A stretch of DNA of 64,000 nucleotides. Source: Elsinoe ampelina. Lineage: Eukaryota. The notes beneath the pieces were generated by a model. The model had not been told where the DNA came from, searched no databases, and saw only the letters and a list, made by a program, of their open reading frames with translations. Of this stretch, positions 31,629-54,953 are shown piece after piece; positions within the stretch are counted from its first letter, which is position 1; every line of letters starts with the position of its first letter. The DNA is taken from positions 1 to 64,000 of the forward strand of contig ML992510.1 of assembly GCA_010093995.1 (NCBI GenBank), read 5' to 3'. Both the position numbers and the translations under genes were made by a program.

Positions 31629-33551
31629 ATCGATGTCAAGCCGGATTTTCGTCCCGCAGCATGTATGCAGGCGTCTAGATATTGGGGAGGGGTTTCCCTT
31701 GCTGGGTTTTACCTCCTAGCGAGCACAAAATGGTCATTAGACGTGTACTTTCCAAGTCCGAAGATGATGATCAAGTATAGACAAGTTCGAGCTCAGACTT
31801 GAAGACAGATTCGATGACGGGTCCGAAGATTGAACACCAGAAGATTGAACACTAGAGATCTCATGCATGCTCTAACGTAATGCCCCTGGGGGCCTCTGCG
31901 GTGGCATTAGAGGGATAGAGATCAAGTCGATGAGCAGGCATACAGCGCCGAGCCGTTCATCTAAAATATCGAGACAATCAGGGCCAGCCATGTCGAATCA
32001 ATAGGGCCGTGAAGCTAGCGCACATCCGGGCATAAACCGTGAACAAAACGATCAGGCTTTCGTCCAGAGCCCCTTGATGGAGTATTGCCGCCGTCGCCTG
32101 CCACAAACCAGCCGTGGAAGTCCATCCGCTAGCTGGACCGATATTGCCAGCCATCCACATTCATCCCGCTTGCTGTTCAAACCTGAAGCGGCTTGAGCGA
32201 CAGCTAGAAGCTGAAGTGTTGTCACTAGCCTGCTTCAATTGGAGGCGTGAGGAGATGAGATAAGATTCCTTGTCAGATACTGTAGAGTAGTTCCAAGCCC
32301 GCACGGCTTGCAGTATGCATGACCCAGCAGAAGGCGGAACATGTCGCAAAGCAGATTTGGTCTTGGAAGCGGATGGTCCAGGTTATAGAGACAAGTGAAT
32401 TCATAAATCGGAGTATTGAATGAATCGTAGATAAGGCCTCTGATATCCCCAAGCGAGCGGCACGAAATGTACAGAGTTATGTGCCGTGAATGGTCATAAT
32501 TTTGCGCCTCGTGTGGACGAGCGAATCTTCGCGAACACGATTACCCTCTCACGCTCTACACTCGTATTTTGCAATGTGAACCTGTGAAATCGATGCTCCC
32601 TAGTAGGTATTTGGCAGATGTGAGTCTATTTTCTGTGTTTCTTTTTGTTGTTGTTGGTTTGTGGGGCCGGTTCTGGAGCGGCGAAAATTCTATATCAAAT
32701 CCAGGTGCGGTTCACAACCTCTCATCGTACTCCACCAAAAATGATCAGAACAACTCCAAATTGCACTAGAGGATGGAGAGATGCATGGAGAATGATCTCG
32801 GGAGCAAAAAATCGAAGAAATCTCCGTTTGACGAAGACGCGATTCGAACGCGCGAATCTTTCGATACTGCGATTTTGTCCTGGTGCTATAACGCCTCAGG
32901 AACCTGAACACAGCGCCATGACCACTCGGCCACTTCGCCAAGATAGCCATTGAATTACGCGTAAAACATTCATATCATTTTTGCTGTGTTTTGGATCCGT
33001 TGTTGGTCTAGGAAGCTGTCCGCGGTGGGAGCAACATTCAGGCACGTAGGGCGGCCAATCACACTCTCGGTATGCCACAGTGAAGTTGCCACGAAGCTAT
33101 GATTGTCTGCGGTTGAGGAGCAATGACAACATCGTAAGACTTAATTCACTAGCGGTGCAGCAAGGCTCGCATGCCACGAGAGGCTTTGGGTGGCATTCAG
33201 GGGTTCGCCACAACACACATGACCAAGACTTCGAGCTGAATGAGCTGCAACTAGAATACGTTGACAGTGATGTGACAGCAACGTTTTAACGTTAATATAT
33301 CAAGCAGATCGGAGTGAGTCCACGTAAATCATTCCAGCACCAACCTGATACTCGGCTCGTTGTAGCATCCGGACTTCAAGTACTACCGGTACGTGCAACC
33401 AGACACATCTACAACTCTGGAAGTGATCAGGAGCCATCATATGAGCAGAAATGAGCATTGAGTCACTACTACAAACGAAGGTATCTATCCAGACTCCGAG
33501 CCTCCGACCAACCCGCTCGCAAGCTCACTGCCTTCTGCTCCTCGGCTTTCC

Positions 33552-51367: not shown

Positions 51368-52986
51368 CTATCGTCCCATCTTCTTCACCTCCATGTATCG
51401 CAACGGCGCATAAACCAATCCCGCCCAAGCAAATCCCACGTAATTGCCGAGCTGTGTCCGTCGTCAGTCATCTTCGTGTACACCTGACCACGCTGCCTTT
51501 TACTCACATCGGCTCCATAATCTCCCATGAGCGCTGCAATAGGTCCAATATACCACACCTGAGCCATGCACAGTATACTGCCAGCCCAACCTATCAAAAA
51601 AGCGGTGAGTGCAGCGGCACCTAGCGGCATCCTATTCTTGTCATTCCACGCATCCCAATCCCATCCAACTTTGCCGCGTCGGAAGAGGAAATGCTCTTCG
51701 AGGAAAATGGCCACCCATATTGCTACCCAATATCCCATCAGCGCTAAGAAATTCGTAAAAATGGCCGCTAGGCTACTCCGTCCTGCAATGGCACACACGG
51801 TGTAAATGATCACGCCAAGCAAATTCCAGACAATACGAGGTATCTGCAGGAACCACCCGCCTAGAACCTGAAAGTCAACGCTACTGCTGTACGTCGGGAC
51901 GATCATGTTGGAAATAAGGCCGAGTGCCACAATGACCGAGCAGAATGACCCGAATGCTCCGAGAGGTGCGTATCCTTCTACCAGTAGTGCTCCTTGCGAG
52001 ATGGCATATGATTCACCCCATTCCGGGACCGTATTGACGCCTGATGCGAGGCCGATCCCGACCATAAAGGCAAAAGTAAACGACACAGTCAGGCCGGCCA
52101 TGGTCATGCTGAACACTTTCCATCTTGGAGTCTCCTCGGGATAGTAGACGAAATAATCCGCTGCGCCGCCCGAGTAGGTGATTGCAGCTGCAAGGCACAA
52201 ACTAAAGAATGATACCCTATGGCCGACAATAGTCATGGGGTTGCCTTGAGAAGGTGTCGTGAGATCGAAACGAGGACCTGCTACACCAGCCAAGATCGAG
52301 AGGACGATCAGTTGAGGTAACCAGGAGTACCGCTCGTAGTAGTGGAAGATGCTGTAGCCAAAGGTGGTGACTCCCCAGGTGATTGCGCTTGTGATGACGA
52401 TCCCGACGATTGTTGACATTGATCCTCCCGGAGATACTGCTGATAGAATTTGACCAGCAATCACAGCGTCGATCAGAGCATACCCAAGCAACACGATAAG
52501 ATTGAGCAAAACCACAAGCTTTGCAGGGTACCATCCCATCGAGTACCTCGCCAGCACCATACTCCTGTTACCACTTCGAGGCCCGAAGGTAGCAAAGTAT
52601 GCCACAGGAAAGCATCCTACTAGCATGCCAAAGACGGCACACAAAGAGCTATCCAGGAACGAGAGCGAAAACGCTGCAGGACCAAGCATACCCAGAGTGA
52701 CATTGTTGGCGGCCAGATTCACACTGAGCCAGAAGAGTGCGATCTGAGTATACCCAAGATTCTTAATGCTGTGGCGTTCAGAAGGCTCAACACGCTGAAT
52801 GCCTCTGGCCTCGAGATTGTAGTACGCGACAGTCTGCTCGAACCGCTTCAGGCTTGTCACAACTTTCGCCCATAATCCAGTGGATTGACCAGGACCACCA
52901 TTGGCAGTCGTCACCCCAGCTGGCGCGAGGACTGGGGCTCCTTTCTCCTCATCCCGAGATTGCTGGCGTTGAGCATGTTCCGACAT
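51368..52986 (-). CDS. NCS1 (purine-cytosine permease, Fcy2-like) transporter; probable thiamine/thiamine-precursor carrier
   Basis: LEARGIQRV, WLSVN, FGPRSGNRSMVLARYSMG, ADYFVYYPE, FLALMGYW, CMAQVWYIGP; multiple TM helices. The last exon LGNYVGF...KKMGR* follows an intron near 51450-51506. Confidence 0.9.
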
Positions 52987-53040
52987 TGTACGCAATCAGA
53001 CCTGTCGACAGTCAGCTGCCAACTAGAAAACGGTAAGCAG

Positions 53041-53140
53041 AGCATGATTTTCTTTCGCTGGAATTATCCAGATCAAGTTCAACCGTGTAATCTCAGAACA
53101 CTCGACTCGTGAAGAATCGAGTGAACACCGGTCTCATGCT
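53041..53140 (-). promoter_or_regulatory. TPP (thiamine pyrophosphate) riboswitch aptamer in the 5'-UTR intron
   Basis: Minus strand reads AGCAUGAGACCGGUGUU-CACUCGAUUC UUCAC GAGUCGAGUG-UUCUGAGAUUACACGGUUGAACUUGAUCUGGAUAAUUCCAGCGAAAGAAAAUCAUGCU. P1, P2, P3, CUGAGA, P4/P5 and GCGAAAG are all present. Confidence 0.96.
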
Positions 53141-53699
53141 TTTCGCAACAATACCTGAGATCATTTGATAGTCGCCCTGTCTGGATAGCCCGTTGGTCGA
53201 GATGCATGCCGTGACATGGTGACTACCTTTTGAGTCGTGTCCGGTCCTTCGCTGGTTTGTATCTCGTTTTGATTCAATTGTTTCAAAGGTAATCGGCAAT
53301 GATGACTCGCTTTTGTGAAGCAAAAAAATTGATGGCGGGGTGATGTCGACAAGATTGCCCCTCCGGTATCCCCCCCCGCAATTTTTTCAACCATTTGCCA
53401 GCCAATCGGGGTCCTTTCAACAAAGCATGACGTCGGGCTTCAATTGTGACCGCCCACTGTGCTCTGCACCTTATTACACCCGACCTACAACCTGCAATAT
53501 ACATACCTGAACTGGTCGCGACAGAGTTCGTAGCACCTGCGCGAATACATCACCTCTGACAGTCCTGCCCCCAGCATGAGCCACACCTCCATATCACACA
53601 CCACCTCAGCGCTCTCTCGACGACGATAGCATCACCACCACCACACCGCCCGTCAACCCCCCTCCACCACTAGCCCCCCTCCACCTCCCCCCTTCCAAA

Positions 53700-54953
53700 A
53701 TGAAACTCATCAAACAATCCATCGACGCCCGCACCCTCTCCGGCAGCGCCACCCTCCTCCCCACCTCCTCAGAAGACATGTGGTCCGCGCACAACCTCAT
53801 CTCACCAGGCGACCGCCTACGCGCCAGTGCCATCCGACGCGTGACCACCCAAGCCGCCTCCACCGGCTCTACGGTCTCGCAACGGGTCCACATAACCCTC
53901 ACCATCGCCGTCACGTCCGTCGACTTCGACGCCCGCGCCTCGGAGCTGCACGTCTCCGGCCGCGTCGCGAATGAGAATCCCCACGTCAAGCTGGGCCAGT
54001 TCCACACGCTGGATCTGGAGCTGAATCGGAATTTCACGCTCGAGAAGGAGGACGGGTGGGATAGTGTTGCGCTGCAGACGTTGAGGGAGGCGTGTGATAC
54101 GGAAAACAGGGCCGAGGTGTGGGCGGTGTTGATTGAGGAGGGATTGGCGAACTTGTGTGTGGTGAGCGAGGGGACGACGGTGGTGAGGCAGACTGTGACG
54201 ACGAGGATGGGGGATAAGACGTTGCCGGGGTATGGGAGTGCGGTGGAGAGGTTCTTTAGGAAGGTGCTGGATACGTTGGTCCGGGCGGTGGATTTTGGGG
54301 AGTTGAAGCCTGTGTTGGTGGCGGGCGTGGGGTATACGGGGCAGAAGTTTTTGGCGTTTGTGAAGGATCAGGCGCAGAAGACGGGGGGAAAGGGGAGGAG
54401 TGGGGATGGGAAGGAACTGAGGGCGTTGTTGGACAAGATTGTGTTGGAGAGGGCGACGAACGCGAGTCTGGGGGCGTTGAAGGAGGTGCTGGCCAGTCCG
54501 GGGGTGCAGAAGAGATTGAGTGATACACGGTTTGCGAGGGAGACGGGGTTGCTGGACAAGATGTTTGAGAGGATGAGGAAGGATGATGGGAGGGTGGTCT
54601 ATGGTCCGAACGAGGTGATCAAAGCTGTCGACGCTGGGGCCGTGGGGAGAGGAGGCGGAGTTCTGCTCATCAGCGATGAGCTATTCCGCAGCTTAGAGGT
54701 TGGTGAGAGGAAGAAGTGGGTGTCCCTTGTGGACCGGGTGAAGGACAGAGAAGGCGGCGAGGTCCGCGTGCTGAGCAGTATGCACGAGAGCGGAAACCGA
54801 CTCAAAGGTGTAGGTGGAGTAGCAGCGCTCCTGACCTTTCCCATTTTCGACGAAGACGAGCTGGAGGGTGGTGCTGTGCAAGGTCAAGGCGCGCAAGCCG
54901 ATGGAGCGGCAGATGGCGATCAAGGGGATCCTCTGGGCGAAATTGAGATGTGA
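53700..54953 (+). CDS. DOM34: Pelota/Dom34 ribosome-rescue factor (divergent middle domain)
   Basis: MKLIK...LLP...EDMW.AHNLI.PGDRLRASAIRRV, GQFHTLDLELNRNFTLEK..GWD, YGP.EV..A...GAV, SSMHESG. Confidence 0.92.
   Translation: MKLIKQSIDARTLSGSATLLPTSSEDMWSAHNLISPGDRLRASAIRRVTTQAASTGSTVSQRVHITLTIAVTSVDFDARASELHVSGRVANENPHVKLGQFHTLDLELNRNFTLEKEDGWDSVALQTLREACDTENRAEVWAVLIEEGLANLCVVSEGTTVVRQTVTTRMGDKTLPGYGSAVERFFRKVLDTLVRAVDFGELKPVLVAGVGYTGQKFLAFVKDQAQKTGGKGRSGDGKELRALLDKIVLERATNASLGALKEVLASPGVQKRLSDTRFARETGLLDKMFERMRKDDGRVVYGPNEVIKAVDAGAVGRGGGVLLISDELFRSLEVGERKKWVSLVDRVKDREGGEVRVLSSMHESGNRLKGVGGVAALLTFPIFDEDELEGGAVQGQGAQADGAADGDQGDPLGEIEM

Follow-up and report, generated by a model that had tools for sequence, protein, structure and literature searches.

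What does a thiamine pyrophosphate (TPP) aptamer do in front of a gene for an NCS1 permease? The question is raised by contig ML992510.1 of Elsinoe ampelina (GenBank assembly GCA_010093995.1), of which positions 1 to 64,000 of the forward strand were analyzed; this whole 64-kb stretch is the window, and all coordinates refer to it. The permease gene lies on the minus strand, and the aptamer lies in an intron of its 5' untranslated region (5'UTR). We propose, with a probability of about 0.82, that the element is an NMT1-type (Type I) TPP riboswitch in the 5'UTR intron of an Fcy21/Tpn1-like NCS1 permease gene. The core of this reading rests on an Rfam match, spliced RNA contigs, the arithmetic of upstream open reading frames (uORFs), and conservation among orthologues.

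An aptamer enclosed by two alternative introns

The RF00059 (TPP riboswitch) model aligned over its full length (model positions 1-105) to 53032-53142 on the minus strand and scored 44.5 bits in E-value mode, with an E-value of 2.6e-7 in 901 nucleotides (nt) searched locally and 1.8e-5 in the entire window on both strands. Of 4227 Rfam families scanned in this mode, it gave the top-scoring element of the window. In the covariance-model alignment, P3 is long and P3a of the RF00059 model is missing. Read directly, the P1 strands are GCAUGA and UCAUGC, and they flank a CUGAGA junction and a P4-P5-like stretch. The CUGAGA junction and P4-P5 are the ligand contacts of TPP aptamers, and both CUGAGA and the P4-P5 pyrophosphate-sensor sequence are present here. 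A preliminary description, made from the letters alone, had placed a full TPP aptamer at 53041-53140 on the minus strand, and the model match agrees with it. Judged by its sequence, the TPP aptamer is real.

The structure of the transcript was read from contigs of two coded runs from different studies, X1 and X3, which were labelled "RNA?" and were judged RNA-like by their spliced contigs. Both behave as RNA, since both skip a 56-nt intron of the coding sequence and leave the intergenic stretch 53306-53451 almost uncovered. The features of the 5' region, in the order of transcription, are as follows:

53227..53305, minus strand: constitutive part of 5'UTR exon 1 (contig end at 53305 in X3, exon contig end at 53293 in X1; 5' end approximate)
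53155..53226, minus strand: alternative exon extension, kept only with the proximal donor; contains upstream ATGs (uATGs) at 53217, 53207, and 53164
53225..53226, minus strand: distal 5' splice site AAG/GTAGTC, from the joint in X3 contig 7; donor of the uATG-free, putatively "ON" mRNA
53153..53154, minus strand: proximal 5' splice site CAG/GTATTG, from the joint in X1 contig 3; 15 nt upstream of P1
53032..53142, minus strand: TPP aptamer, P1 being 53140-53134 with 53047-53041; RF00059 at 44.5 bits, with support for the fold from orthologues
53011..53015, minus strand: branch-point-like CTGAC, a motif read from sequence, 10 nt before the acceptor
53002..53003, minus strand: common 3' splice site AG (CAG 53004-53002), at which both 5'UTR junctions end; three RNA-contig joints

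The main contig of X3 (2393 nt, depth 266) joins 53227 to 53001, skipping 53002-53226, and ends at 53305; this GT..AG junction on the minus strand is the sole 5'UTR junction of that run. In X1, contig 3 (55 nt, depth 10.3) joins 53155 to 53001, skipping 53002-53154. The same run yielded an unspliced contig that spans the entire intron (52975-53182, depth 7.3) and an exon contig, contig 4 (53153-53293), that reads through the distal donor at 53226 unspliced. The 5'UTR intron is 153 nt long from the proximal donor and 225 nt long from the distal donor, and both forms enclose the aptamer. The downstream exon begins at 53001, and the main ATG at 52986 stands 15 nt past the acceptor. The acceptor, the branch motif (CTGAC at 53015-53011), and the proximal donor AG/GTATTG at 53154 had all been predicted in the preliminary description, and the first and third are now seen in spliced contigs. 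The distal donor had been placed at 53506, where neither RNA-like run has a joint; the distal donor of X3 is 53226, 280 nt away.

The choice of donor determines which uATGs stay in the leader:

Leader spliced from 53226 (counted from a start at 53305): 94 nt; no uATG
Leader spliced from 53154: 166 nt; uATGs at 53217, 53207, and 53164
Leader unspliced: 319 nt; five uATGs

There is no ATG within 53305-53227. Within the alternative extension, the uATG at 53217 opens an 18-codon uORF whose stop lies 21 nt before the main ATG, and those at 53207 and 53164 open uORFs of 47 and 20 codons, respectively, and each of these two extends across the main ATG in a different frame. The 20-codon uORF had been foreseen as a product of proximal splicing and does exist; the two further uATGs had been overlooked. 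It had also been stated that distal splicing removes every ATG between the donors. With the donor at 53226, the leader has no uATG at all; a hypothetical exon ending at 53507 would itself bring in as many as three out-of-frame uATGs, their number varying with the transcript start.

Orthologous loci and a predicted masking helix

With a protein profile of the permease, we recovered 80 orthologous loci from environmental (metagenome) sequences, and counted an aptamer where a core motif plus a P1/P2 anchor shortly preceded the protein match on its coding strand. An aptamer in the same placement as in the window was found in 60 of the 80 loci, i.e., in 60 of the 70 with enough upstream DNA; half of the 20 aptamer-negative loci have less than ~110 nt of upstream DNA and hence are uninformative. 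A search of orthologues had been suggested earlier as a check on the aptamer, and it is borne out by this count. Rfam matched 17/17 of the motif-positive loci tested, at 25.6-56.1 bits, and 8/18 loci missed by a stricter initial motif. Only one of these 25 matches lies above the Rfam gathering score, which is a curation cut-off and not a structural feature, so sub-threshold RF00059 scores are a property of the class.

To describe the fold, we used an alignment of 46 distinct orthologous aptamers. The TPP fold pairs 90.1% of its cells, compared with 31.8%-49.6% when the partners are slid, and 9 of 28 base pairs, located in P2, the base of P3, and P5, have changed on both sides. This covariation supports the helices as aligned. 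P1 and P4 are uninformative in this respect because they are almost invariant. In total, 38 aptamer columns, CUGAGA and P4-P5 among them, are invariant, although the proteins are merely ~57%-73% identical to the query. We also noted that P1 (53140-53134/53047-53041 in the window) is GCAUG/CAUGC in 44-45 of the 46 sequences, with an AUG in both strands; this constancy exceeds what structure alone would demand.

The arrangement of splice sites recurs as well. In orthologues, P1 is preceded at 9-21 nt by a proximal donor and, in 32 of 53 distinct loci, at 65-81 nt by a GTACG distal donor. A uATG separates the two donors in each of these 32 loci; in 27 of them proximal splicing, with a heuristic choice of acceptor, yields a uORF running across the main ATG in another frame. 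CTGAC- or CTAAT-like motifs occur at the position equivalent to the branch-like motif of the window. The window donors, 15 and 87 nt upstream of P1, fit the orthologue pattern, whereas 53506 (~370 nt) does not. Separately, a uORF of ~13 codons recurs between the donors of many orthologues (e.g., L025:640-720 and L019:1290-1356); it includes a conserved GAGUAGCAG-like stretch and ends in GAU CAA G/GU, and the P5 3' strand can pair with part of this uORF.

The region around the proximal donor is predicted to pair with the aptamer. Across 46 loci, the mean predicted energy of pairing between the 40 nt upstream of P1 and the aptamer 3' half is -22.1 kcal/mol, compared with -14.7 kcal/mol for control windows further upstream (Wilcoxon p = 5e-13, for sequences that are related and not independent). 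The partner of the frequent orthologue donor motif GAUCAAG, CUUGAUC, is present in the aptamers of 33 of 47 distinct loci. In addition, the upstream sequence follows the type of the aptamer: GCAG, which can pair with CUGC of the P5 3' strand, occurs upstream of 17/17 aptamers of the CAGG/CCUG type and of 5/27 of the CUGG/CCAG type, whereas an upstream CUGG accompanies 1/17 and 9/27, respectively. We regard the predicted pairing between donor region and aptamer as a strong signal at the level of the family. If true, the way in which the uORF region co-varies with the P5 3' strand would give this riboswitch class its first comparative proof of a masking helix.

A corresponding strand is predicted in the window:

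53156..53187, minus strand: predicted anti-aptamer strand, pairing with 53065-53095 (thermodynamic prediction only)

Its predicted partner, 53065-53095, comprises the P5 and P4 5' strands, the P2 3' strand, and CUGAGAU. For 53195-53030, the minimum free energy (MFE) is -49.6 kcal/mol with the masking helix and -45.4 kcal/mol with the aptamer fold enforced. In the ligand-free MFE fold, the last exon bases and the GU at the proximal donor have a probability of 0-0.2 of being unpaired. The window donor reads GAUCUCAG/GU, a variant of the orthologue motif.

The proposed switch and competing explanations

We suggest that the locus might work as follows. Transcription would start near 53305, and the donors at 53226 and 53154 would compete for the acceptor at 53002. 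When TPP is scarce, 53187-53156 would pair with the 3' half of the aptamer, leaving the aptamer unfolded and the proximal donor buried; the distal donor would then be used, the 72-nt stretch with three uATGs would be removed, and the resulting 94-nt leader would permit translation of the permease. When TPP is bound, the aptamer would fold and the proximal donor would be freed, so the uATGs would be kept or the mRNA would stay unspliced. Permease synthesis would be expected to fall in that state, since two uORFs cross the main ATG out of frame. From the arrangement described above we infer that TPP is bound, which way the switch works, and that the masking helix forms. The preliminary description had recognized the same NMT1-like logic (an aptamer in a 5'UTR intron, two donors and one acceptor, uORFs only with the proximal donor), and both the contigs and the uORF arithmetic are in line with it.

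Several observations weigh against this proposal. First, contigs prove the presence of a form, neither its absence nor its level, and the proximal joint of X1 rests on a single contig of 55 nt, whose shorter side spans 25 nt. The isoforms of X1 and X3, two runs of unrecorded growth conditions, are opposite, a difference that may or may not reflect thiamine. Second, GAUCAAG/GU, found in 31 of 47 distinct loci, is missing from the window. In a 40-nt test, the masking helix of the window was only moderately better than chance (z = -1.1), and among 500 shuffles of its 30-nt donor region, 195 paired at least as strongly. Third, the window aptamer went unreported in an Rfam scan in gathering mode, at 44.5 bits against a gathering score of 54.3; the Infernal check proposed earlier is thus significant in E-value mode and below the gathering score. 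Fourth, in 10 loci no aptamer was found by motif within upstream stretches of 733 nt or more, and 7 of these loci are also Rfam-negative at E <= 0.1. Finally, the comparative statistics use related, non-independent sequences. The aptamer-less loci are L013, L018, L031, L032, L035, L039, L043, L044, L045, and L074; they may be paralogues or losses, or their aptamers may lie further upstream.

A functional aptamer might instead act mainly through intron retention or slowed splicing followed by decay, with the branch site or 3' splice site occluded and with donor choice and uORFs secondary. The unspliced contig of X1 (depth 7.3), which occurs beside the proximal junction (depth 10.3), would fit such an output, as would the five uATGs of the unspliced form and the end of P1, only ~25 nt from the CTGAC branch motif. 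However, two distinct donors are in use, the two-donor arrangement with an intervening uATG is kept in 32/32 evaluable loci, and the conserved complementarity is aimed at the proximal donor, not at the branch site. We consider it unlikely that retention is the main output.

The same switch could also operate with a distal donor at 53506 (AG/GTATGT) and a first exon further upstream. The site is present in the sequence, and GTATGT is a good fungal donor consensus. Nevertheless, a junction from 53506 was not seen in X1 or X3, and the junction from 53226 is in the dominant X3 contig. Contig depth is near zero between 53306 and 53451, and the coverage upward of it begins at 53452 in X1 and 53480 in X3, where an adaptor-like loose end marks the end of a molecule. 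This coverage (53452-53900) is continuous with a divergent pelota gene on the plus strand. Furthermore, the "ON" state would be lost with an exon ending at 53507, which would bring in as many as three uATGs out of frame, and the distal donors of orthologues lie 65-81 nt upstream of P1, not ~370 nt. A donor at 53506 is therefore very improbable.

A reading in which the aptamer is a non-regulatory remnant in decay, and splicing noise accounts for both junctions, is just as improbable: the aptamer score is under the Rfam gathering threshold, and the parts of a modelling paper that bear on the "nucleoside transporter" class raised a possible loss of function on the ground that experiments are lacking (PMC8786325), but all core nucleotides are kept, 38 columns are invariant over 46 sequences from proteins ~57%-73% identical to the query, P2, P3, and P5 show compensatory changes, and low scores are typical of the class (1/25 orthologue matches above the gathering score).

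The NMT1-type reading corrects the 5' structure of the permease gene, and it offers precise targets for mutation in both donors, in each of the three uATGs, and in the anti-aptamer segment. It also bears on annotation: the default Rfam threshold systematically misses the class (1/25 orthologue matches and 0/1 in the window pass), so default annotation pipelines will not flag it.

The permease, its cargo, and known systems

The coding part of the gene consists of two exons:

51508..52986, minus strand: NCS1 permease coding exon 1, 493 codons; PF02133
51452..51507, minus strand: coding-sequence intron, 56 nt, GT..AG; joint in X1 and X3
51368..51451, minus strand: coding exon 2 and stop codon, completing a 520-amino-acid protein

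The assignment to NCS1, made in the preliminary description, is confirmed by a Pfam match to PF02133 over residues 80-476 (70.4 bits; cut-off 23.5). TIGR00800 also matches at 153.3 bits, under the cut-off of 353.1 of this prokaryote-annotation model. The best match is a protein of equal length from Elsinoe batatas (P0001; 505/520 residues identical, 97%), followed by homologues from E. australis (86%) and Sphaceloma murrayae (85%). Close homologues are named in their sources as FCY21, fcyB, vitamin B6 transporter, or NCS1 nucleoside transporter. A phmmer search of the permease against PDB sequences gave nothing at E <= 0.01.

Two neighboring features were noted. The divergent gene at 53452-54953 on the plus strand is pelota/Dom34-like (eRF1 domains 1-3), with an ATG near 53697; the RNA contigs imply a 5'UTR of ~220-245 nt for it, and the ends of the divergent transcripts are only ~150-175 nt apart. 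A transfer RNA (tRNA) at 32829-32939 on the minus strand (39.5 bits; gathering score 29) was the sole element in the gathering-mode Rfam scan of the window. It has a 35-nt insertion after the 5' strand of the anticodon stem, probably an intron, plus an extra arm; ARAGORN found no tRNA in the window.

The cargo of the permease is the least certain part of the picture. The preliminary description took it to be thiamine, hydroxymethylpyrimidine (HMP), or thiazole, a putative assignment whose only basis is the association with the riboswitch. Bacterial CytX, a putative HMP transporter, is under TPP riboswitch control. Like CytX, the window protein is a permease of the NCS1 superfamily associated with a TPP riboswitch; unlike it, the protein scores 20.8 bits with the CytX model TIGR02358 (cut-off 309.85), its only thiamine-related family match, and so is not a member. 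Fungal NMT1/THI5 consumes pyridoxal phosphate in making HMP, and the yeast paralogues for vitamin B6 synthesis are induced by thiamine starvation. We tentatively raise the possibility, on balance a doubtful one, that the cargo might be a precursor feedstock rather than thiamine, either HMP, by analogy with CytX, or vitamin B6, by the automatic names of homologues. If so, an RNA that senses vitamin B1 would control the import of another vitamin that feeds B1 synthesis. A literature search on the function of AN4526/Fcy found no transport data for the riboswitch-bearing clade. In the section of PMC8306328 that treats it, Aspergillus nidulans FcyC has no recognized transport function.

Among known systems, the locus resembles NMT1 of Neurospora crassa, and THI4 (Cheah et al. 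2007, as presented in the relevant passages of PMC3597705 and PMC5882874), in having an aptamer in a 5'UTR intron with two donors and one acceptor. According to the same part of PMC3597705, a 5' splice site is masked by P4-P5 nucleotides of the NMT1 and THI4 riboswitches as long as TPP is lacking, and abundant TPP leads to the alternative product, which contains uORFs, a design called "Type I" in PMC5882874. As in NMT1, uORFs are kept here only with the aptamer-proximal donor, and aptamer nucleotides are predicted to pair with the proximal donor region. The masking helix differs from that of NMT1 in that it is predicted to form through the P4 and P5 5' strands, the P2 3' strand, and CUGAGAU in the window, and through GAUCAAG/CUUGAUC in most orthologues. 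Unlike NMT1 and THI4, the window gene encodes a transporter, not a biosynthetic enzyme.

A transporter gene is also controlled in NCU01977/DUR31, which the pertinent passages of PMC3597705 describe as TPP-repressed through a choice among alternative 5' splice sites. The aptamer of this "Type II" system, as described there, acts by alpha-alpha' pairing over ~530 nt and is located in an intron of 650-900 nt that separates coding exons of a urea/SSS-family transporter, whereas the window introns of 153 and 225 nt lie in the 5'UTR of an NCS1 gene. The design in the window is not Type II. A candidate long-range alpha element near 53460, similar to that of NCU01977, was set aside because the distal donor is at 53226 and the gene is outside the urea/SSS family.

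The preliminary description had presented a switch on this permease as nearly new; however, the pairing and its Type I design have already been published for Ascomycota (PMC5882874, and PMC5997356 in its account of the class). The combination of a TPP riboswitch with a "nucleoside transporter" (Fcy21/Tpn1-like) is listed in PMC5882874 as Type I for Ascomycota; Supplementary Data S1 of that paper gives Aureobasidium namibiae (Dothideomycetes) as 5'UTR, Type I, nucleoside transporter, and has 0 occurrences of Elsinoe or Sphaceloma. In its treatment of the class, PMC5997356 likens A. nidulans AN4526.2, among others, to Tpn1 and Fcy21, and cites Moldovan et al. 2018 for the term "putative transporters." A count of 26 such "TPPsw-NUC" sequences is given in the relevant part of PMC11683625, and the class is said, in the corresponding part of PMC8786325, to lack experimental validation. 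What is new here is modest: support at the level of transcripts, and the anti-aptamer viewed across the whole family. The locus adds a transcript-supported example to a class of fungal TPP riboswitches that these accounts otherwise report from genome scans. Like the TPPsw-NUC genes, e.g., those of A. nidulans (AN4526.2) and A. namibiae, the window gene encodes a protein of family PF02133, and whereas the class is described as computational only in those accounts, both splice forms of the window gene are seen in RNA-derived contigs.

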